A stretch of 64,000 nucleotides of DNA. Origin: a virus. Of the stretch, positions 54,253 to 64,000 are shown piece by piece. The stretch spans positions 1 through 64,000 of IMG/VR virus record IMGVR_UViG_3300013014_001174; one strand, written 5' to 3'. The notes below the pieces were generated by a model. That model ran no database searches. It was not told the DNA's origin and worked only from the letters and a program-made list of their open reading frames with translations. The position numbers and the translations under genes are program-made. Each line of letters starts with the position of its first letter. The stretch's first letter is position 1.

Positions 54253-54834
54253 TTACTTGTTATAATGTAACTTGATTATTGCTTTATCAATTTCAGAAAA
54301 TTTATTTGTATTACAACCACCTTGGTAAAAAACACTTTCTGGATACTTCCAAGAATCATTCATTAAACCTAGAGATTGTGTAATTTCTTCACGTAATACA
54401 CTTTTTAATTCAATACCACAAAGTCTTTCATTTATGAAAATATGACTTGTGTAGATTCTTGATTGATATACAACTGTCCCAACAAAACCCAAAAATTTAC
54501 CATTTATAGTAATGTTAGCCCTTTTTTTATATTCAGAAAAATCACAAAAATAAATAAAAGTATTAGCCTCTTTTTTATCCTTAGCAATTGAAATTGTAAT
54601 TGGGTCAATAAGATTGTTTAATTCATTAATGATAATTTTTGTATACTCTTTTATTGAATCATTGTCTTCAAAATCAAAAAATATCTTTACATCGTTTTTC
54701 CATTTTACAAAATTATGACTTGAGTCCCCGTATTCAGATTTTCCGGCGATTTCGTTATAATAATGAACCACAGAATCTTGACTAAAAGTTGTGGTTACAA
54801 AAAATAAAAATAGGGTTGTTATAATTGTTTTCAT
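54253..54834 (-). CDS. Secreted DUF2927-like (zincin-like) protein
   Basis: Signal peptide; LREEITQSLGLMNDS..YPESVFY. Confidence 0.65.
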   Translation of the reverse strand: MKTIITTLFLFFVTTTFSQDSVVHYYNEIAGKSEYGDSSHNFVKWKNDVKIFFDFEDNDSIKEYTKIIINELNNLIDPITISIAKDKKEANTFIYFCDFSEYKKRANITINGKFLGFVGTVVYQSRIYTSHIFINERLCGIELKSVLREEITQSLGLMNDSWKYPESVFYQGGCNTNKFSEIDKAIIKLHYNK

Positions 54835-54873
54835 ACAACAAAGATATAAAGTTTTTTTTAATATACAAAATTA

Positions 54874-55080
54874 TTATTCTTTGATTTTAAACCAACGTTT
54901 GAATAATTTTTCCCAAACATCCATTGCCGGATTAATAGCAACGAAAAAACCAATAGCACCAACAATAAAATTACCAATAGAAGATTCTGACTCCAAATAG
55001 TATTTGAATAGCCACAAGCCAACCCAAACAATGAAGAATGAAAGGATTGAGGACAATAAGAATAAAAGAAACTTTTTCAT
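54874..55080 (-). CDS. Small membrane protein
   Basis: Two hydrophobic segments. Confidence 0.6.
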   Translation of the reverse strand: MKKFLLFLLSSILSFFIVWVGLWLFKYYLESESSIGNFIVGAIGFFVAINPAMDVWEKLFKRWFKIKE

Positions 55081-55099
55081 AATATAAATTTAAAATTTG

Positions 55100-55182
55100 A
55101 TGTCAGGGTGGGAGTCGAACCCACAATGAGCAACCATCTTTAACAGATGGGATTAGCACCGGTGCCTTTTACACTCCTGACA
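55100..55182 (-). ncRNA. tRNA-like element, identity unclear
   Basis: Acceptor TGTCAGG/CCTGACA and T arm GTGGG-TTCGACT-CCCAC; non-canonical D and anticodon arms. Confidence 0.5.
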
Positions 55183-55345
55183 AACACGACTCTTCAGCAT
55201 TCTACTCCCAGCTCCGAGGAATTGTATCTAACTTAGCCCGTTACTCACCGCTGTACAGGTACTGAAGTTCATCGTCTTTTTCTTACCGTAAAGATAACTA
55301 AAATAAAGAACATAAACAATAATCCAATCATAATTTTATTTTTTT

Positions 55346-55420
55346 TGGCGGTCCCACCGGGAATCGAACCCGGCATACTGCCGTGACAGGGCAGCGTTAT
55401 AGCCGATTAACTACAGGACC
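55346..55420 (-). tRNA. tRNA-Asp(GTC)
   Basis: Cloverleaf, loop CTGTCAC, encoded CCA. Confidence 0.92.
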
Positions 55421-55634
55421 AAAGTTTCCCCACCTGAGATTAATGGTGAGTAGATATTCACAGTTTTTCTATTTGAAAACCCAACGTGTCTTACCACTTA
55501 AAAGTCAATCCTTACTTGGGGGAGAGGAGGATTTTCCAAACCGATTCCCAATGAGTACCACATTTACGCGATAGTACCAGCTTCGTTAAGTTTTGTATGA
55601 ACTTAAAAACATCTTGAGTATCTCTCACTCATTG

Positions 55635-55706
55635 TAGTCCCACCGGGAGTCGAACCCGACTTTTCAGGATGAAAACCTGACGACCTAACCGATAGTCGAT
55701 GGGACC
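55635..55706 (-). tRNA. tRNA-Glu(TTC)
   Basis: Cloverleaf, loop TTTTCAT. Confidence 0.9.
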
Positions 55707-55717
55707 ATTTTGTTTTA

Positions 55718-55999
55718 TTACAAACCTAACATTTCACCAACTTTTTTGAAATGTTTTTCAATCTTATTCAAAGCAGCCGTAGCCTTTTGTTTGGTCTTGA
55801 AGTACACGTAGAACTGACCACTTTCAGAATCAAACTCACCTTCAATCTTTAAGACATCTTGTACAAAACTTTCAAACTCATACGCATCTTCCCAATTACG
55901 GATTGTGTTTTTGTTTGGGAATCCTGTCAAACAATAATCGGATCCTTCAATTTTTGTAATTTTTAAACCTACGGTTTTAATTGTCTCTGTGTTTGTCAT
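55718..55999 (-). CDS. Hypothetical protein
   Basis: ORF after promoter TATCTTTG (56027-56020). Confidence 0.7.
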   Translation of the reverse strand: MTNTETIKTVGLKITKIEGSDYCLTGFPNKNTIRNWEDAYEFESFVQDVLKIEGEFDSESGQFYVYFKTKQKATAALNKIEKHFKKVGEMLGL

Positions 56000-56352
56000 A
56001 GTTATTTATTTTTGTTCTACAAAGATATGTAATCTATTTTAATCTACCAAATCTTTTTTTAAATTTTTTTTGTGGGACCCGCTCCCCACTCTGAACTTGT
56101 ACTTCGTTCTTTTAAGCGTTTTTTTTAAGTTCTCCAACCAGCCAGTATTCGTGTTAACTCTAATCATTTTAACTTTTGATGACTCTGAAGTACCTGATAA
56201 AATTTCTCTCATCATTTATTCGTATTAATTGTTTATTTTTGAGCGGAAGACTTCCGCAAAATAAAAATCAACATTGCTATCAGGATTTAAACGTCGCTCA
56301 GAATACTTACTGACGCCCACTGGTTGGGTACAGTGACTAGTTGATCTTTTTG

Positions 56353-56433
56353 TACTGATGGTTGGATTCGAACCAACGTTTTAAACTTACCGCTACAGGC
56401 ATAGACGATATAAGCGTCCACTGGTACATCAGC
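56353..56433 (-). tRNA. Atypical tRNA-like gene, anticodon TAT (Ile), D-arm absent
   Basis: Acceptor GCTGATG/CATCAGT; GGACG-CTTATAT-CGTCT; T arm GTTGG-TTCGAAT-CCAAC. Confidence 0.5.
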
Positions 56434-56512
56434 GTAATCGTCAGTCTCTCCTGACCGTCACCCCTAACCCACAGGTATTACCCGTATCGTAGTAAAGCTT
56501 GGTTTGCTATAG

Positions 56513-56584
56513 TAGCGTGTCGTGGATTTGAACCACCCCGTAGACGTTATGAGCGTCCCATGCAACCAATTACACCTTCACGCG
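56513..56584 (-). tRNA. tRNA with CAT anticodon (Met-type), degenerate stems
   Basis: GGACG-CTCATAA-CGTCT; mismatches at 1:72, 7:66 and in the T stem. Confidence 0.65.
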
Positions 56585-57140
56585 ATATATCTATTTTTCC
56601 GTTATCAAACTCCCAATGATGATTAGGACATAAACCGATTAAATTATCAATTGAGTTTATGTTTCTTATTAATTCATCACCACCAAAAGACGAAACTGAG
56701 TTTATATGACAAACCTCAACATGATTAGAATATCCACATATTAAACATTCTTTTTTTGTTGTGTGTTTATTAAAAACATAATGTGCGTGTTTTCTAACTA
56801 CAGCCCTAAATTTATAATAAACTCCGTGTTTTTCATATAGTTCTTTTTTTGTCATATCTAACAAAAATTCAAACTTTTCTTTTTTTTCTTTTTTAATACC
56901 TTCAACTACTTTTTTTTCTCTTTTCAGTTCTCTAACTTTATTGTTATAAGTCGCAGAACAAGAACTATTACAAAAAGTTTTTTTTCTTACGTGTCTTGGT
57001 TTTTCACTTTCTTTAACCTCAATTATTTTACCACAATTTTTACAAATCTTTGGGTTATCATAATAATTTTTCAAAGAACGCTCTTGTAAAATTTTCTTTG
57101 TTGTTTGTGCTCCTTTCTGATATTTGTTAAGTTTTTCCAT
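56547..57140 (-). CDS. HNH endonuclease
   Basis: CKNC and FCNSSC Zn motifs; CLICG...VCHI...NLIGLCPNHH. Confidence 0.85.
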   Translation of the reverse strand: MEKLNKYQKGAQTTKKILQERSLKNYYDNPKICKNCGKIIEVKESEKPRHVRKKTFCNSSCSATYNNKVRELKREKKVVEGIKKEKKEKFEFLLDMTKKELYEKHGVYYKFRAVVRKHAHYVFNKHTTKKECLICGYSNHVEVCHINSVSSFGGDELIRNINSIDNLIGLCPNHHWEFDNGKIDISREGVIGCMGRS

Positions 57141-57223
57141 ATATATAAATATATATTAAAGCTCAAAAATACCTATCACTACAAACTTTTTTTAGAGAAA
57201 TCAACTTTATCTCCCGCGATATG

Positions 57224-57329
57224 TAGTCAAAGAAGGATTCGAACCTTCACGGAATAAGTGTAATAGTTACCTTATTCCAAGGAGTTTTGAGTATTATCTC
57301 CCAGCGTCTGCCAATTCCGCCACTTGACT
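57224..57329 (-). tRNA. Atypical tRNA-Leu(CAA)-like gene with enlarged anticodon loop and long variable arm
   Basis: Leu-type D arm GCG-GAATTGGCAGA-CGC; loop ATAATACTCAAAA; 28-nt variable hairpin; canonical T arm. Confidence 0.55.
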
Positions 57330-57560
57330 ATTTAGACTTGTAATTTAGTAGTTGACTCAAACTCTCGTTTCACCATCTTGAGTCAACAGGTTAATGCACT
57401 TTACGAGTTTCCCGTTTCTTACAACCACTTGTCTTTAACAAAGATATGTATTTTATTTCAATCTACCAAATCTTTTTTAAACTTTTTTTTTCTTGTGTAT
57501 TTCTTTTTATTACGATACACATTTGGCCTTGTTGCCATCATAATCTCCTGGTATGTAATC

Positions 57561-57866
57561 TCAATTGTTTTCATCGTTATACAATCTTTGAACGTGACTA
57601 ATTATTTTATTTATATCTTCTTTTGTTTGGAAACCTAAAACATCATTTGTTAATATTGTATCATAACAAATTTTCCAATTACCCTTCCTTCCTTTAATTA
57701 TTGCAACCTCCCAGGTTTTATCGTCTGTATAAGACGAATATCTGGTACTATAAGGATGTTTATATCTTACAACTGAAAGTCCGTATCCACCAGGAAAAAA
57801 TATCAATCCGTGAACACCATCTCCAGATGTGTGTGGTTTAAATTCTATATCATCAAATGTTATCAT
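57561..57866 (-). CDS. Hypothetical protein
   Basis: 101-aa ORF after TACTTTTG (57878-57871). Confidence 0.7.
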   Translation of the reverse strand: MITFDDIEFKPHTSGDGVHGLIFFPGGYGLSVVRYKHPYSTRYSSYTDDKTWEVAIIKGRKGNWKICYDTILTNDVLGFQTKEDINKIISHVQRLYNDENN

Positions 57867-57913
57867 AAGACAAAAGTATAAATAATTTTTTAATTATCAA
57901 AATTTCAAAGAAC

Positions 57914-58043
57914 AAAAAAACCCACCTCTTTTGGAGATGGGTTTCAAAATTTATTATGCATTAATTTATCATACCATCTCCTTATAGGAACAATCCTCAG
58001 CTATCGCCAATCCGCCTAATAATATGATATGTAAATTTTTCAT
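57914..58043 (-). promoter_or_regulatory. Putative attenuator 2: leader ORF 58043-57969 (MKNLHIILLGGLAIAEDCSYKEMV) plus terminator 57944-57914
   Basis: GGAGATGG in the last leader codons is exactly complementary to CCATCTCC in the terminator 5' arm. Confidence 0.65.
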
Positions 58044-58044
58044 T

Positions 58045-58581
58045 TTAGTATCTATTATTTCTACTTTTATCGGATTTTCCGTAATGGTGTCCCGATTGGT
58101 ATTTATCATAACCTTTTCTTTTAAACCAAGCGGCGTCTCTAAGAGTATTACTTGCTAAAGCGTAAACCCCTAAAGCTGCAGCAATTCCCCCACTTATAAA
58201 CATTGCTGCTGGAATAACTGCCAATCCAGCACCAACTGAACTATAAGTAATAATTTTATCAAGAATATTTCTTATTTTGTATTCAGTATCACCCATTTCT
58301 TCTTCATCATCTTCCGTTAATACAGACTCCAGAGAATCCTTAATCATAGATTGTAAAGATTTGATACCGTTACTTTCTATAAAATCACGTAACATATCTT
58401 GTTCTTCAGAACTCAATCGTTCTGTCGCTTTTTTACTACTTTGTTCTAATTCCATTTTTGAAACGTCCACATCTGATTCCATATCTTCAGATTGTGAAAT
58501 CCATTCTTCTTCATTTTCTTTAATCACTCGTCTAACAATTCTTGCTAAATCTGATTCTGTTAATCTAATAATTCTTTTCAT
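58045..58581 (-). CDS. Hypothetical protein with LTESDL motif and a hydrophobic segment
   Basis: MKRIIRLTESDLARIVRRVIKE. Confidence 0.7.
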   Translation of the reverse strand: MKRIIRLTESDLARIVRRVIKENEEEWISQSEDMESDVDVSKMELEQSSKKATERLSSEEQDMLRDFIESNGIKSLQSMIKDSLESVLTEDDEEEMGDTEYKIRNILDKIITYSSVGAGLAVIPAAMFISGGIAAALGVYALASNTLRDAAWFKRKGYDKYQSGHHYGKSDKSRNNRY

Positions 58582-58635
58582 ATCAACATTTTAATATAAA
58601 TATAACAGTATACAAAAAAAAACAATAAAGTTTTG

Positions 58636-58715
58636 TACCCCCGGAGAGACTCGAACTCTCACACCCTTCGGCACTGGTGTCTAAAACCAGCATGTCTGCA
58701 TTCCATCACAGGGGC
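58636..58715 (-). tRNA. tRNA-Leu(TAG)
   Basis: CTGGT-TTTAGAC-ACCAG, variable arm, T arm. Confidence 0.88.
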
Positions 58716-58724
58716 ATTTATTTG

Positions 58725-58796
58725 AGGACCTAATTGGAATCAAACCAATCTAACCGGTTTTGCAGACCGGCACCTAAATCTCTCGGCCATAGGTCC
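58725..58796 (-). tRNA. tRNA-Cys(GCA)
   Basis: CCGGT-CTGCAAA-ACCGG, U73. Confidence 0.88.
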
Positions 58797-58801
58797 TTAT
58801 A

Positions 58802-59257
58802 TTAACGGCAGTGATGATCTGCCGCTTTTGTTGCAATTTGATTGTCAGGTTTAATATTTGTTTTATAACCCAACGACGTTGCCCACCCAACAACAGGTTG
58901 AACCAATTTTGAACTGAAATGTTTTTCTTGACTATTATAATCTAAATCAATCTCAACTATCACCTTCACTTTCTGGGTTAACCATTCGGCAACCTCAATT
59001 GAATAATCGGCCTCATTCCAAAGACGTGTCCATTTGTCTTTAATTTTTTTCACTTTCTGTTTATGTAGTATGTAGTGAACACCACGATTTCCATACCGGT
59101 ATGCAATAACCGTAACATAAATTGTACTTCTTCTGTGATTTTGTGAATCTGTACCAATGTGGACCTCAACCCAGGGACATTCTTTCAGAACATCTAAGGT
59201 ATGTTTTACCACATCAGGAATTGTTTCACCGTTAACCGTTCTAAATACTCTGTTCAT
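58802..59257 (-). CDS. RNase H-like YkuK/DUF458 family protein
   Basis: HIGTDSQ, RLWNEADYS, IDLDYN, IKP...A...AD. Confidence 0.75.
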   Translation of the reverse strand: MNRVFRTVNGETIPDVVKHTLDVLKECPWVEVHIGTDSQNHRRSTIYVTVIAYRYGNRGVHYILHKQKVKKIKDKWTRLWNEADYSIEVAEWLTQKVKVIVEIDLDYNSQEKHFSSKLVQPVVGWATSLGYKTNIKPDNQIATKAADHHCR

Positions 59258-59274
59258 TATTTCTATTTATTTTG

Positions 59275-59347
59275 TGGACAGGGAGGGTGTCGAACCCCCG
59301 ACTCCAGGATCTTCAATCCTGAGCTCTACCAACTGAGCTACCTGTCC
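59275..59347 (-). tRNA. tRNA-Phe(GAA)
   Basis: CAGGA-TTGAAGA-TCCTG, canonical D arm. Confidence 0.92.
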
Positions 59348-59351
59348 AGTG

Positions 59352-59432
59352 TGGAAGTGGTAGGGGTCGAACCTACACGCCTTTCGGACTTGATTTACAG
59401 TCAAGCGAGCCAGCCAAATGCTCAACACTTCC
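59352..59432 (-). tRNA. tRNA-Tyr(GTA)
   Basis: CTTGA-CTGTAAA-TCAAG, variable arm. Confidence 0.9.
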
Positions 59433-59442
59433 TTATTATTTG

Positions 59443-59516
59443 TACACTCTACAGGGGTCGAACCTGTGACCTTTTGCGTATCAGACAAACGCTACTACCA
59501 TCTGAGCTAAGAGTGT
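59443..59516 (-). tRNA. tRNA-Ile(GAT)
   Basis: TTTGT-CTGATAC-GCAAA. Confidence 0.9.
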
Positions 59517-59586
59517 GTTTTAGTTTCTTGGAACGAAGATAACCATTTTTTGGTAATTATCGTTCTTTTTTACTAAATTTTTTTTG

Positions 59587-59657
59587 TTCCCCCGGACGGT
59601 AACGCTCCGACTTCTTTCCGTTAAAAGCGGAAAGCTTCACTTTAAAGCTTCGAGGGA
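59587..59657 (-). tRNA. tRNA-Lys(TTT), non-canonical T loop
   Basis: TTCCG-CTTTTAA-CGGAA; T loop AGCGTTA. Confidence 0.75.
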
Positions 59658-59716
59658 TTCTGTTTGTCATACTTGTCACTTTCCATAACACTTGTTTTTA
59701 TTTGTTTATTTATTAG

Positions 59717-59787
59717 TCGAATGTGTACGAATCGAACGTCTCCCGAATGTCCCAAACATCCTGTGCAACCATTACACCACACACTCG
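59717..59787 (-). tRNA. tRNA-Pro(TGG)
   Basis: GGATG-TTTGGGA-CATTC; weak T stem. Confidence 0.75.
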
Positions 59788-59802
59788 TTATTTTTTTTTT
59801 TG

Positions 59803-59887
59803 CTACGGGGGGAGGGATCGAACCTCCAATGGTAATTTACCTCCAGGGTCAAAACCTGGTGACTTTGCCTAATTCGTCTACCCCGCA
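59803..59887 (-). tRNA. tRNA-Gln(TTG) with long variable arm
   Basis: TGCGGGG/CCCCGTA with G73; CCAGG-TTTTGAC-CCTGG; variable region AGGTAAATTACCATT. Confidence 0.75.
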
Positions 59888-59895
59888 ATTTACAG

Positions 59896-59979
59896 AGGAG
59901 AGATGAGGTGTCGATCCCCATACCTTTCAGTACCAACCGTTTTCAAGACGGTGTCACAAGCCGTTGTGATTATCTCTCC
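59896..59979 (-). tRNA. tRNA-Ser(TGA)
   Basis: ACCGT-CTTGAAA-ACGGT, long variable arm. Confidence 0.85.
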
Positions 59980-60019
59980 TTTTATGAAACCAATATGTCA
60001 AAGAACTTTTTCTTTTTTG

Positions 60020-60092
60020 AGGTTCCTATCAGGGTCGAACTGATGACTCCGGGTTACAAAGCCGGGATATTACCAAACTATACTAAGGAACC
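60020..60092 (-). tRNA. tRNA-Thr(TGT)
   Basis: Acceptor GGTTCCT/AGGAACC; loop TTTGTAA; C:C mismatch at 31:39. Confidence 0.78.
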
Positions 60093-60106
60093 AAATTTTT
60101 GGGTAT

Positions 60107-60279
60107 AAAAAAACCCGAACTGTTTTGAGTCCGGGTCTTATATTCCTTTTTATTTTTGTTAATCTTTATCAACTCATAAATGAAAACGCCCTAATATGCG
60201 ACTTAAACGTAAGATACACGTTAAACGACCACTGAATGCTCGGATTACAAATGTTCATATGTTTATTAGTTGTTTTCAT
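60107..60279 (-). promoter_or_regulatory. Putative attenuator 1: leader ORF 60279-60169 (36 aa) plus terminator 60136-60107
   Basis: Promoter TATCTTTG (60340-60333), then leader ORF, then ACCCGGAC/GTTCGGGT-T6 hairpin, then tRNA-Thr about 15 nt later. Confidence 0.65.
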
Positions 60280-60377
60280 TTTTTGTTTTGTTATAAATAT
60301 ACTGTTATTACTAAAAGTTTTAATTTCTGTTACAAAGATAGGTTATTTTTTTTAATTGACAAGTTTTTTTATTTTAT

Positions 60378-60644
60378 TTATCTTCTTCTTCTTGCTTCTT
60401 GGAATATTTTTTCAAACACATCCCCCATACCGGCACCATTTGCACTCACTCTTTTCCCTAAAATTGACTCAATATCCGAAAACTCCTCACTTGTCATTAT
60501 ATCACTAGTTTTAGATAAAAAATTTCTAAAAAACCTATCTGGAATATCGTCCATAGTTTTTTTCTTACCTTCTTTGTCTTCATTAATAACTTGTCTAACA
60601 ATTCTTGTTAAATCTGATTCTGTTAGTTTAACTACTTTTTTCAT
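60378..60644 (-). CDS. Hypothetical protein with LTESDL motif
   Basis: MKKVVKLTESDLTRIVRQVINE. Confidence 0.7.
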   Translation of the reverse strand: MKKVVKLTESDLTRIVRQVINEDKEGKKKTMDDIPDRFFRNFLSKTSDIMTSEEFSDIESILGKRVSANGAGMGDVFEKIFQEARRRR

Positions 60645-60672
60645 AATCTTTTATTTATAAATATATTATTAT

Positions 60673-61113
60673 TTAGTATTCCCAAGATTTTTTTTTCGGC
60701 CCTTCAGAACTACATATTATTGGTTCGTCAATAATATTCCAACGTCTATGTTCTATTTCTTCCATTAATTCTTCATCAAATTCTTCGTGGTCTAACATTC
60801 CATCCAAAATTTCATAGGTCCTTTCAATATTTCCACAAATAAAATCACTAACATATTCTGGTGTTGGTCCACTTACCGGTAATTCAGCTGTTATCATATA
60901 TTCACCGTCATTATAGTTATCACAAATTAATACAGCACCGAATTTTGAATATTCTCTATTTGTTACTTTATTTTCAGCAACTTTAATTTTACAAGCAACT
61001 CCTGTTCTTGGGTGTGTATATTTAAGGTCTTCTTCGGAATACTTTTCTTCTTTAATAATTCTTTTAATAAGTCTTATTAAATCAGATTCCGTTAGTATTA
61101 CTTTTTTCTTCAT
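60673..61113 (-). CDS. Hypothetical protein with LTESDL motif
   Basis: MKKKVILTESDLIRLIKRIIKEE. Confidence 0.7.
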   Translation of the reverse strand: MKKKVILTESDLIRLIKRIIKEEKYSEEDLKYTHPRTGVACKIKVAENKVTNREYSKFGAVLICDNYNDGEYMITAELPVSGPTPEYVSDFICGNIERTYEILDGMLDHEEFDEELMEEIEHRRWNIIDEPIICSSEGPKKKSWEY

Positions 61114-61208
61114 AGATATAAATATCTTGAAGGTATGAAAAATAATCTTCAGAGTTTATAAATTCATTGTGTATTTGTTCAAATATATCTTCCATACTAT
61201 TTTTTTAG

Positions 61209-61283
61209 TGATCCCGGAAGGATTTGAACCTTCAACCCTCGCCTTAGAAGGGCGATGCTCTAATCCAATTGAGCTACGGGACC
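61209..61283 (-). tRNA. tRNA-Arg(TCT)
   Basis: TCGCC-CTTCTAA-GGCGA, canonical D arm. Confidence 0.92.
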
Positions 61284-61506
61284 AAGTTTTAAATCTCTTT
61301 AACTTCGTATGTGTGTCCAGAATCTGAATTTAATTCAAATATCTCTCTCATTTTTTTAGCTTCCTCAAGTGAATTAAATTCTAAAATTTCAGATTCACTA
61401 TTTAATATGATAACAGGAACTCTTTTTTTGTTATCATTCATTTTAATGTGTTTAATTATTACGTACATATTTTTTTATTAAATTATACCAATAAAAAAAT
61501 GATAAA

Positions 61507-63327
61507 TCAAATTCTTAAAGAGTCTTTTCCAATATTAAAACCACCACCTTTTGGATTTTGTGTTTTTTTATTAACCAAAACACCTTTTGCTTTATTTGCT
61601 AATGAATTTTTATCAATTGGTCTTTCTATTTCATTTTCTTGTTTTACTTGACTAATTGGTGGCCTTTCTTTTATTTGTGATTGTGGTCTATGTTTAATTT
61701 CTTCTCTTGTATAATTCCTAATAGGTTGTGGTTGTGAGTCTTTAGTTTGTAACAGACTTAAAGGAGATATGTTTTTTTCAACTCTTGGTATATTTGGACT
61801 TTTAATTTCTTTTTTTGGTGTTGTTAGTGTTTGTGTATGAAGTATAACATAAGGTTCAATAACCATATTCTGTATTGGTCCAACAGAATTTCTTTGTCTT
61901 GCTAAAGTCCCATAATGTGCTCTTAATTTTGATCCCATCCCTGTGTCTGGTCTACTTGTTAAACCATTTTTGTGTATTCTTCTATAAAAATTAATTTTAT
62001 TTGTAAATTTAAATTTATATTGTTTTGTACCGTATAGTCTACCCATAAAATCTGAATCTGCAGCACACATCCAAGGTTCAAACCCATTCATATATTCAAA
62101 TATATCTTTTTTAATTGCAAATACACCTTCACCAATGTGTTTTTTTGTTTGAGAATTAAATGGTTTTCCATCGATAAAATTTGTATAATATGGTTTTACA
62201 CAGTCGTGAGTCATAAGACCATTAATCGAATCCTCAACCATATTTAAATTCATAATATCATCTGAACCAAAAAATAAAATGTTTTTAGAAAGTGCCAGTT
62301 TAGATAAAGTATTAAACACAATATAAGGACCGTTGTTCTTTTTAAAAAAGAAAAATTCAAAATAACCTGGATAACTATGTGATTCTATATGTTCCTTTGA
62401 TTCAATACAAGAATCAATACCAACTAAAACTTGTACCTTTTTTCCACCAATGGAATTAATAATAGAATCAAAACACTCTTCCAAATATTGTGTGTTTAGA
62501 TATGTTGATATTATTATTGTAAGTTCATATATGGATGTTGAATCTATTGAATTTTTTATATTATTATTCCAACCTAAATCATTAACATTTAAATTTGTTT
62601 TTGAGAAAATATTTGGTTTTGTATCAAAATATGATTCTCTGGCATGACTTATATTATTATGACCGTGTGTGTCAACACTATCATTATAGAGTTCATCATC
62701 AAAGTATCTTCTGAAATTTCTGGAAGATTGTTTACAAGAAATTATTGAGTAATTATATATGTACCCATCAATACCTTTTTTCAAAGGTGAAAACGACAAT
62801 GTTTTTATGTATTCCGTTTTTAATGACATATTAAGATTTGTAAAACCTTTATAGTCATATAAAATAACCCTATCACTTATAAATGAATAAAAATAACCTT
62901 TTGTTTGGTCATACCAATCATAGTCTTCATTTACAATTTTTTCATAACTTATTTTAAGTCTTGTTTTTGGTGAATAACAATCGGCAGCTTGAAGTAAAAA
63001 ACATTTTGATGAGTCACTTACGTTTTTTCCAATTTCAATCCATTTTTCAACTAAAGAAACTTTTTCATTATTTGTTATATATACAATTCTTGAGCAATTA
63101 ACCAATTTTAGTTTTTCGATATACAAATCAAATAGTTCTGGAAATACAGATTGTTCGTGTTTTTCTTCATAAACAATTAATTCCCAATTAAAATCAATAT
63201 TGATTTGTTCACATAAACTTTCTATAGATATCCAAGCAATTTTTTTACTATTGTAAACTGGAAGTGCTACAGTTAATTCCGACACTGTGTCGTTCTCAAA
63301 GATGGTTTGTACTATTGTTTGATTCAT
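61507..63327 (-). CDS. Tandem two-domain GT2-like glycosyltransferase with basic low-complexity tail
   Basis: LTVALPVYN...QAADC and LTIIISTY...FGSDD...AADSDF domains. Confidence 0.75.
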   Translation of the reverse strand: MNQTIVQTIFENDTVSELTVALPVYNSKKIAWISIESLCEQINIDFNWELIVYEEKHEQSVFPELFDLYIEKLKLVNCSRIVYITNNEKVSLVEKWIEIGKNVSDSSKCFLLQAADCYSPKTRLKISYEKIVNEDYDWYDQTKGYFYSFISDRVILYDYKGFTNLNMSLKTEYIKTLSFSPLKKGIDGYIYNYSIISCKQSSRNFRRYFDDELYNDSVDTHGHNNISHARESYFDTKPNIFSKTNLNVNDLGWNNNIKNSIDSTSIYELTIIISTYLNTQYLEECFDSIINSIGGKKVQVLVGIDSCIESKEHIESHSYPGYFEFFFFKKNNGPYIVFNTLSKLALSKNILFFGSDDIMNLNMVEDSINGLMTHDCVKPYYTNFIDGKPFNSQTKKHIGEGVFAIKKDIFEYMNGFEPWMCAADSDFMGRLYGTKQYKFKFTNKINFYRRIHKNGLTSRPDTGMGSKLRAHYGTLARQRNSVGPIQNMVIEPYVILHTQTLTTPKKEIKSPNIPRVEKNISPLSLLQTKDSQPQPIRNYTREEIKHRPQSQIKERPPISQVKQENEIERPIDKNSLANKAKGVLVNKKTQNPKGGGFNIGKDSLRI

Positions 63328-63472
63328 AGAAATAAATATAAAATAAAAAAACAATAAATGAATAGGGTGAAAAACAAAATAGGAACCGAAGTTCCTATCT
63401 TGCTAGATACTTAAACACCTCCTTCTTTTAGATGGTTTATTCTTATTCGGTAACTACACCAAACAAGTATCT

Positions 63473-64000
63473 TTAGTATCCATTTCTTTTTATGTTTGTT
63501 AAAATTTTAGTTAAAGTAGATTCTGTAAGTTTTAAATTTTTCTTTTTTGTTATTGCTTCGCTTAAATTTTTCTTAACTGTTTTTCTTACTGATTCGTAAA
63601 CTGCAAAACCTTCTCTATAAAAGTCTTTATCTATAAAATTGTTATTTGTAATTTCAACACCATTAACTTCTTCGCCTCTTAATAGTTTAATTATATCATT
63701 CATATCTAATTTTTTCTTAAACATACCAAAAGGTAATCGATCTTGATCTACATTTAGGAAATCGTCTTCTGTTAAAGGTCCTAATTGTTTTAATTCTCTA
63801 CGAACATCGCCTTTGGCTAAACATCTTTCAAATTCATCTAATTTTTCTCTATTACCTTTAGTTGATCTTGATGCTGCAAATGCAGTATTTAAATACATAA
63901 TTAATTCATCTCTTAATGTTTCTGCATTACATTCAATAGACATAGTACTAGCAGCACTACGACCCATTTGAGTTTGATAAATAGGTAAAGTTGATTTTGT
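63473..64000 (-). CDS. Partial CDS (start lies beyond the window)
   Basis: Frame is open to the window edge; C-terminal KLTESTLTKIL motif. Confidence 0.6.
   Translation of the reverse strand, partial: TKSTLPIYQTQMGRSAASTMSIECNAETLRDELIMYLNTAFAASRSTKGNREKLDEFERCLAKGDVRRELKQLGPLTEDDFLNVDQDRLPFGMFKKKLDMNDIIKLLRGEEVNGVEITNNNFIDKDFYREGFAVYESVRKTVKKNLSEAITKKKNLKLTESTLTKILTNIKRNGY

Follow-up and report, generated by a model that had tools for sequence, protein, structure and literature searches.

Leader-peptide attenuation is a textbook mechanism for the control of amino-acid biosynthesis and of a few other protein-coding operons. The attenuators of amino-acid operons (E. coli thrL, the ilvGMEDA leader and trp, and leaders of Bacteroidota and Proteobacteria that start MKNL) share with the phage locus described here a short ORF that carries the relevant codons and whose stop codon falls within segment 2, a set of mutually exclusive helices (1:2, 2:3 and 3:4), and an intrinsic terminator that closes in a T-run. 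The MKNL start and the overall size are common as well, and the multivalent leaders among them likewise monitor several amino acids. The phage unit differs in that it is phage-borne, precedes tRNA genes and not biosynthetic enzymes, has a boxA-like site past its terminator and, in the family studied here (leader 2), carries its sensor codons mixed and not in runs. As the regulated genes would be tRNA genes, the likely signal is decoding capacity or tRNA supply rather than amino-acid supply.

The pheM leader of E. coli pheST likewise works through a leader peptide and, as is proposed here, sets the expression of a translation component by the speed at which cognate codons are read, but it is cellular and serves one aminoacyl-tRNA synthetase and one amino acid, not a viral tRNA block. 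T-box riboswitches also sense tRNA status and set a terminator/antiterminator switch before translation-related genes; they differ in that uncharged tRNA itself is the ligand and neither ribosome nor ORF takes part, and no T-box match was found at this locus. The boxA-like motif, GTTCTTTGA, resembles the boxA of rRNA operons and, as in rrn-type boxA/Nus antitermination, stands at the start of an untranslated stable-RNA unit, but here it lies past a terminator presumed to be regulated and not past a promoter, and its function is untested. Full-text searches, which left most subscription journals outside, found no account of leader-peptide attenuation of tRNA genes.

The window, by which is meant the whole stretch of 64,000 nt that was analysed, is part of a 78-kb IMG/VR record (IMGVR_UViG_3300013014_001174) estimated to be 24% complete, and its DNA occurs in lake and freshwater metagenomes. 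Searches of 50,697 phage records with the region and its 178-aa gene (megablast, blastn, tblastn) returned only tRNA matches and distant homologues of a 101-aa gene; judged by sequence comparison, the lineage is uncultured and has no close cultured phage. An earlier reading of the same DNA, made without database searches (the sequence-only reading), had proposed two attenuators in the window, each matched to its own tRNA cluster. The present study is concerned with the second. We consider it probable, with a likelihood of roughly two in three, that this element (leader 2) is a member of a conserved family of leader-peptide attenuators, operated by the ribosome, that head tRNA block 2 in uncultured freshwater giant phages with Bacteroidota-type promoters.

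Leader ORF, terminator and alternative helices

The observed anatomy of the leader, with the gene that precedes it, is as follows.

58581-58045, minus strand: 178-aa gene, one of the multi-copy MKRIIRLTESDL family, with 1 nt between its TAA and the leader ATG
58043-57969, minus strand: 24-codon leader ORF (leader 2) with its TGA (57971-57969), peptide MKNLHIILLGGLAIAEDCSYKEMV
58037-58024, minus strand: segment 1, AAUUUACAUAUCAU, which pairs with the ORF end; possible anti-antiterminator or pause hairpin
57981-57963, minus strand: segment 2, whose GGAGAUGG (57981-57974) forms the 5' side of the antiterminator; the remainder, with the stop codon, is the pairing partner of segment 1
57945-57933, minus strand: segment 3, the 5' arm of the terminator plus the first loop base, containing CCAUCUCC (57940-57933)
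57945-57914, minus strand: intrinsic terminator, with a hairpin of 11-12 pairs (57945-57917), a 5-nt loop and a seven-T run

Both the 24-codon ORF and the terminator behind it are as the sequence-only reading had described them. The terminator reads GAAACCCATCTC-CAAAA-GAGGTGGGTTT followed by T7, and is the sole strong terminator-like site on the minus strand in the 54500-64000 region scanned. Its hairpin begins 23 nt after the TGA, a shorter distance than the 25-33 nt given earlier. The antiterminator complementarity is exact, as had been claimed: GGAGATGG in the last codons (57981-57974) is the perfect complement of CCATCTCC in the 5' arm of the terminator (57940-57933), and when ORF and spacer were shuffled a perfect 8-nt complement arose by chance in 171 of 20,000 cases. 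GGAGAUGG occupies nucleotides 63-70 of the ORF, with the stop codon 3 nt beyond it.

When the leader is folded alone, the start of the ORF (AAUUUACAUAUCAU) pairs with its end (AUGGUAUGAUAAAUU), and this third helix, as predicted from the fold, is what gives the locus a trp-like 1:2 / 2:3 / 3:4 layout. The computed energies are -14.2 kcal/mol for helix 2:3, -16.3 kcal/mol for the 3:4 terminator and -17.2 kcal/mol for the leader fold. A scan of 54500-64000 with Rfam 15 (E <= 1) gave tRNA matches only, with no leader or riboswitch model.

The region downstream of the terminator

Past the T-run, the window contains the following features.

57913-57905, minus strand: boxA-like GTTCTTTGA, directly past the T-run, and present after the unit in 45/46 relatives
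57901-57871, minus strand: promoter motif of the Bacteroidota type, TTTG-N19-TACTTTTG, separated by 4 nt from the ATG of the 101-aa gene; a putative bypass promoter
57866-57561, minus strand: gene for a 101-aa conserved phage protein, inserted between attenuator and tRNAs
57470-57439 and 56051-56020, minus strand: further host-type promoter motifs (TTTG-N17-21-TAnnTTTG pattern)
57329-57224, minus strand: type-II (Leu-like) tRNA-like RNA, whose anticodon region has 15 nt instead of 9 (Rfam and relaxed ARAGORN)
57140-56547, minus strand: gene for an HNH endonuclease (PF13391, E = 1.8e-9) that interrupts tRNA block 2
56586-56512, minus strand: tRNA-Met(CAU), weak (Rfam 26 bits, below the Rfam threshold)
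56433-56353, minus strand: Ile(UAU)-like tRNA, aberrant, its D arm replaced by a 4-nt stretch and with a variable insert of 22 nt
55706-55634, minus strand: tRNA-Glu(UUC) (ARAGORN)
55420-55346, minus strand: tRNA-Asp(GUC) (ARAGORN)

The sequence-only reading had implied that an RNA comes next past the terminator, whereas the next gene is that of the 101-aa protein. Of the five RNAs it had listed, Glu and Asp are upheld, these being the only two that standard ARAGORN calls downstream of leader 2, while the Leu-like, Met(CAU) and Ile(UAT)-like RNAs stand only as weak or aberrant calls from Rfam and relaxed ARAGORN. Two small ORFs lie between the Ile(UAU)-like tRNA and the tRNA-Glu and tRNA-Asp genes, and the Gly and Ala tRNAs of block 2 are absent from the window. 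A 91-nt element (57428-57338, minus strand), which follows a repeated promoter motif and immediately precedes the first tRNA-like RNA, is 95-97% identical in two relatives (L001, L003); its fold is modest (z = -1.3) and it has no Rfam match.

The boxA-like motif occurs five times in the window (49209, 50842, 57071, 57905, 59998) where 1.28 copies were expected, and none of 100 shuffles reached five; in relatives it stands either just before a tRNA or past an intervening promoter motif. The host-type promoter pattern TTTG-N17-21-TAnnTTTG is not enriched (nine found, 6.1 expected); only its placement is informative. A generic sigma-70 scan performed at chance level (46 found, 45.3 expected) and was not used.

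Conservation and covariation among relatives

Relatives, designated by L numbers, were collected by protein-guided and pattern searches, and comprise dozens of IMG/VR contigs of up to 304 kb. Counts of IMG/VR pattern matches hold among the matches listed, which are not all members. The retrieval patterns demanded an MKNL start or the leader-2 terminator, and segment 2 was never in any of them. Chance pattern matches (L044, L048/L049, L082/L088/L105, L084, L110, L117 and many genome matches) were left out.

The unit of ORF and terminator was found in all of the related IMG/VR contigs retrieved. Its reading frame is open in 34 of 34 distinct units, with 20-24 codons, no internal stop and a common end point, and the other two frames of the same units contain 110 and 53 stops. 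Differences in ORF length are multiples of three, and the middle of the ORF is strongly divergent (e.g., NQTYNTTYRTEEKSTR). Between close pairs of units the ratio of synonymous to non-synonymous changes is about 1:1, which suggests that the peptide is to some degree constrained; that it has a function of its own is not ruled out.

Covariation of GGAGATGG with CCATCTCC in relatives had been put forward as a check in the sequence-only reading, and the pairing proved to be both kept and covarying. Antiterminator helix 2:3 is paired in 95.3% of cells among 32 sequences and in 95.4% of cells in a 46-sequence alignment, with two-sided (compensatory) changes at four of the eight pairs (17 cells), the covariant partners being GGAGAGGG/CCCTCTCC, GAAGATGG/CCATCTTC and GAAGAGGG/CCCTCTTC. 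The observed values were reached by 0-1 of 500 column shuffles, and slid registers were 43-66% paired. The terminator is 98% paired across relatives, also with compensatory changes. Helix 1:2 is 86% paired, shows some covariation and is present in most single-sequence folds; in L038 it is made with a different 5' partner. Because the sequences are phylogenetically related, the covariation counts overstate the number of independent events, and the same applies to the leader classes described below.

Position of the unit between two tRNA blocks

The gene order of the relatives is fixed, with block 1 (Thr, Gln, Pro, Lys, Val, Tyr, Asn, Ile(GAU), His, Arg, Arg, Trp, Phe, Cys, Leu(UAG)) followed by the unit and then by block 2 (Leu(UAA), Met, Ile(UAU), Gly, (Ala), Glu, Asp and others), so that the unit sits between Leu(UAG), where block 1 ends, and the head of block 2. 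The first downstream tRNA is Leu(UAA) in 22 of the 46 units; in the window the first RNA of block 2 is the Leu-like one. Block 1 of the window contains an RNaseH-like gene (PF04308, 58802-59257). Three arrangements are found between terminator and tRNA.

13/46 units: tRNA 26-32 nt past the T-run, with the boxA-like motif alone between them and no promoter motif
19/46 units: TAnnTTTG motif between terminator and tRNA
14/46 units, including the window: intervening ORFs

In the 13 units of the first arrangement only the boxA-like motif lies between T-run and tRNA, which implies that those tRNAs are made only by read-through. The window and 33 of 46 relatives have a TAnnTTTG motif past the terminator, and their tRNAs need not depend on read-through; the attenuator may add to, rather than wholly gate, tRNA transcription. 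The sequence-only reading had cautioned that host-type promoters at about 57878, 57446 and 56027 could bypass this attenuator. The corresponding motifs were located (57901-57871, 57470-57439 and 56051-56020), and the caution is stronger than stated, since the leader has no promoter of its own here, a host-type promoter and a protein gene follow it, and 33 of 46 relatives carry a motif past the terminator.

Loss of the leader-2 promoter in the window

In 37 of 46 distinct relatives the unit is preceded by an upstream CTTGACAC-N16-TATATT element (TTGACA-type) and an A-rich leader. The window copy of leader 2 has no TTGACA-type upstream element and no promoter directly upstream. It is abutted by the 178-aa gene, on which the sequence-only reading was silent, and as the leader ATG lies 1 nt past the TAA of that gene, leader 2 in the window genome lies at the 3' end of its mRNA. 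Homology to the relatives' 178-aa gene ends at its stop, and homology to their leader starts at ATGAAAA; the 1.5-4 kb of paralogous genes, together with the promoter, that lie between the two in L001 and L003 are absent from the window. From this comparison, we read the loss of the leader-2 promoter as a deletion at the ATGAAAA microhomology.

The multi-copy family to which the 178-aa gene belongs is represented in the window at 58581-58045, 60644-60378 and 61113-60673 (minus strand), with many copies in L001-L008. Its members share only the N-terminus MK(R/K)IIRLTESDLARIVRR and the upstream DNA, and are arranged in tandem arrays around the tRNA region, a rearrangement hotspot between relatives.

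A further upstream element, TATTTATAACAAAAC, stands 10-22 nt ahead of the leader ATG. In the window it is found only before leader 1 (60299-60285, minus strand), and in relatives it is found before leader 2 (L001, 8027-8041; L003, 9959-9973). It may be a phage-specific promoter or a 5'-UTR element. Weaker variants of it (TATATTTATA) precede paralogous protein genes. That the element is common to leader 1 here and to leader 2 in relatives indicates that the two leaders are sister cassettes, and the statement that attenuators 1 and 2 lack sequence similarity is only partly right, with the shared upstream element speaking against it.

These features raise the possibility that the window element is no more than the ordinary terminator of the 178-aa gene transcript with a relic leader in front of it, and that the downstream genes run on their own host-type promoters. 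Such an explanation would fit the deleted promoter, the leader ATG 1 nt past the upstream stop, the three promoter motifs downstream, the intervening protein and HNH genes and the aberrant first tRNAs, and it has a parallel in L005 and L006, where a homologue of the 178-aa gene is followed directly by a plain terminator without an ORF. We nevertheless think it unlikely. The window ORF is identical to that of L003, the unit from ATG to T-run is a near-match to those of L001 and L003, and there is no visible decay; the boxA-like site is retained; and translational coupling to the 178-aa gene would still load ribosomes, so that read-through could remain conditional. It also has no bearing against the function of the family. 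With the promoter lost, genes inserted and the tRNAs aberrant, a weakened or rewired role in the window genome is likely, and the switch, intact in sequence, probably gates the tRNAs only weakly here.

Leader codons and downstream tRNAs

Attenuator 1 (60279-60169) starts AAAATGAAAA and ends ATG-AGT-TGA-TAA, in keeping with the common start and the ATG-NNN-TGA-TAA end reported for both attenuators, and its peptide lacks D, E and G. Leader 2 does contain the D, E and G codons missing from leader 1, plus TTG and two ATA codons, as had been noted. Leader 1 also has a strong helix between the 5' and 3' ends of its ORF (z = -3.8), although an antiterminator is not established. A 59-aa ORF before tRNA-Arg (61468-61289) was considered as a third leader, but it looks like an ordinary small protein and has no terminator.

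The codons of the two leaders are split between the tRNA blocks in the manner expected if each attenuator were matched to its own cluster, leader 1 having 25 block-1 and 3 block-2 codons, and leader 2 having 8 and 12 (Fisher p = 4.4e-4); regulated read-through remains an inference. The proposed sensor codons of leader 2 are codons 7-17 (I L L G G L A I A E D), all of which belong to block 2 if U34 reads four-codon boxes, but the choice of these codons was post hoc. Under strict wobble, block-2 codons make up 12 of 23 in leader 2, and the sensor codons are not in runs. Among divergent leaders, Thr codons appear where a tRNA-Thr follows (L037, L103, L035), and the leaders of L038 and L042, rich in T, Y, R and E (NQTYNTTYRTEE), precede Glu, Arg(UCU), Thr, Cys and Tyr tRNAs.

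The association extends to a wider group of leaders. The pattern ATGAAAAATTTA-N85-115-GGGTTTTTT gave, among the matches listed, upwards of 118 viral stretches, and in 76 of these an ORF of 15-32 codons is present. MKNL leaders with terminators were seen before phage tRNA blocks in a superfamily of IMG/VR loci (L054-L141). Its classes include the following, each with the tRNAs found downstream.

PQPQQHPQ..EWG: Pro, His, Gln
QQQQQ: three Gln
LLVLVLCSLVV: Cys, Val, Leu
ITRITRKRRTT: two Thr
NNGRPQQHPQ: Arg, Pro, His, Gln

A comparison of leader codons with downstream anticodons against shuffled controls, also suggested by the sequence-only reading, was positive. Across 17 dissimilar classes, the fraction of middle codons with a cognate-amino-acid tRNA within 2 kb downstream (<=2 kb) was 0.414, compared with 0.186 +/- 0.037 after permutation (0/100,000), and the codon-level version of the test gave 0.338 compared with 0.142 permuted. 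In each leader class, the last codons are complementary to the terminator arm of that same class. For the 3' end of the ORF, pairing with the terminator arm of the same unit comes to -10.25 kcal/mol (73 distinct units), whereas the arms of other units give -7.59 +/- 0.25 (0/5000) and a shuffled ORF end gives -5.0.

When the same DNA pattern was applied to bacterial genomes as a positive control, classical attenuators were returned (L145, L170, L184, L193, L210, L226, L234, L236), some of them in Bacteroidota, with the MKNL start and the same layout. They comprised WWW leaders before trpE (Chitinophagaceae, Bacteroidia), HHHHH(H) leaders before hisG, a TTTIITTT leader before thrA and an IIIIII leader before ilvA. 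The common start and layout suggest that the phage leaders are built on the template of host amino-acid attenuators and, on this resemblance, bacterial attenuators of this kind are their likely evolutionary source. Two assemblies with bacterial labels gave leaders of the phage type. L179 (JBAZIW010000001.1), a 'Candidatus Paceibacterota' MAG of 362,763 nt, has the same size, PQ leader and Pro/His/Gln tRNAs as the IMG/VR giant phage L102 and is probably a phage binned as a bacterium, and L146, a 'Gammaproteobacteria' assembly, has an LLVLVLC-type leader with Cys/Leu/Val tRNAs.

Proposed mechanism

Beyond the observed anatomy, conservation, covariation and codon-tRNA association, the working of the switch is inferred: no experimental or RNA-end data exist for translation of the ORF, stalling, regulated read-through or the signal sensed. 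A 221-nt contig from an RNA library spans 57898-58045 and continues like the relatives that lack the 101-aa gene, but RNA ends are not visible in a contig and the library may contain carried-over DNA, so that it is no evidence of transcription or termination.

Under the proposed attenuation, fast translation of the 24 codons would bring the ribosome to the stop codon, where it would cover segment 2 (GGAGAUGG), allowing 3:4 to form and transcription to end at the T-run. Without translation, 1:2 would pair and 3:4 would again terminate. A ribosome stalled on the central codons (Ile-AUA, Leu-UUA/UUG, Gly, Ala, Glu, Asp), which are those read by the block-2 tRNAs, would block 1:2 and leave segment 2 free; with the A site on codons 5-16 or so, GGAGAUGG is predicted to be free, 1:2 blocked and 2:3 favoured. 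Free segment 2 would then pair with segment 3, the terminator would not form, and polymerase would pass the boxA-like site into the tRNA genes. The outcome would be a demand-driven feedback on tRNA supply. Slowing of the ribosome could come from host anticodon nucleases, from other tRNA-depleting defences, or from the mismatch of the host tRNA pool with the AT-rich codons of the phage.

The same attenuation could also answer to a different signal, namely amino-acid starvation or general translation capacity, for example in the timing of tRNA expression during infection. Stalling alone cannot tell uncharged, cleaved or scarce tRNA apart, the leader mixes many amino acids, as do the multivalent thr and ilv leaders, and the layout is that of host amino-acid attenuators. 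Extra tRNA, however, is no relief for amino-acid starvation; the division of the codon sets between leaders matches exactly that of the tRNA genes between blocks; and codons move with tRNA genes, as seen for Thr in L037, L103 and L035. Feedback specific to tRNA fits these observations better, and we regard a different signal as improbable.

A free-standing small gene, encoding a micro-peptide or a trans-acting small RNA of about 140 nt without cis control of the tRNAs, could account for the relatives' TTGACA/TATATT element and terminator (most with another promoter motif behind), for the mild excess of synonymous changes and for the hydrophobic N-terminal half of the leader-2 peptide, and Sinorhizobium offers a precedent in rnTrpL/peTrpL, an attenuator RNA and leader peptide that can act in trans (PMC6614838, PMC7298713), but it is very improbable given that the peptide is not conserved between classes and its composition tracks the downstream tRNAs, that every class shows complementarity between the ORF end and its own terminator arm, and that in 13 relatives the first tRNA follows too closely for a promoter to fit.

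Implications for phage biology

Returning to tRNA-specific attenuation, a broader proposal is that giant phages possess a demand-sensing feedback on their own tRNA supply, with each tRNA block placed behind a leader written in the codons of that block and borrowed from host attenuators, so that the block would be transcribed only upon slow reading of those codons; on this our judgement is evenly divided. The window represents a natural variant, a switch without its promoter and partly bypassed, and it shows the erosion or rewiring of such a cassette. If the proposal is true, these phages would measure decoding speed codon by codon and reply with matching tRNAs, which would explain the grouping of tRNA genes in fixed blocks. 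It would also tie phage tRNAs to counter-defence against host systems that cleave tRNA (for context, see PMC11555353), and the leaders would constitute compact, programmable sensors of tRNA availability.
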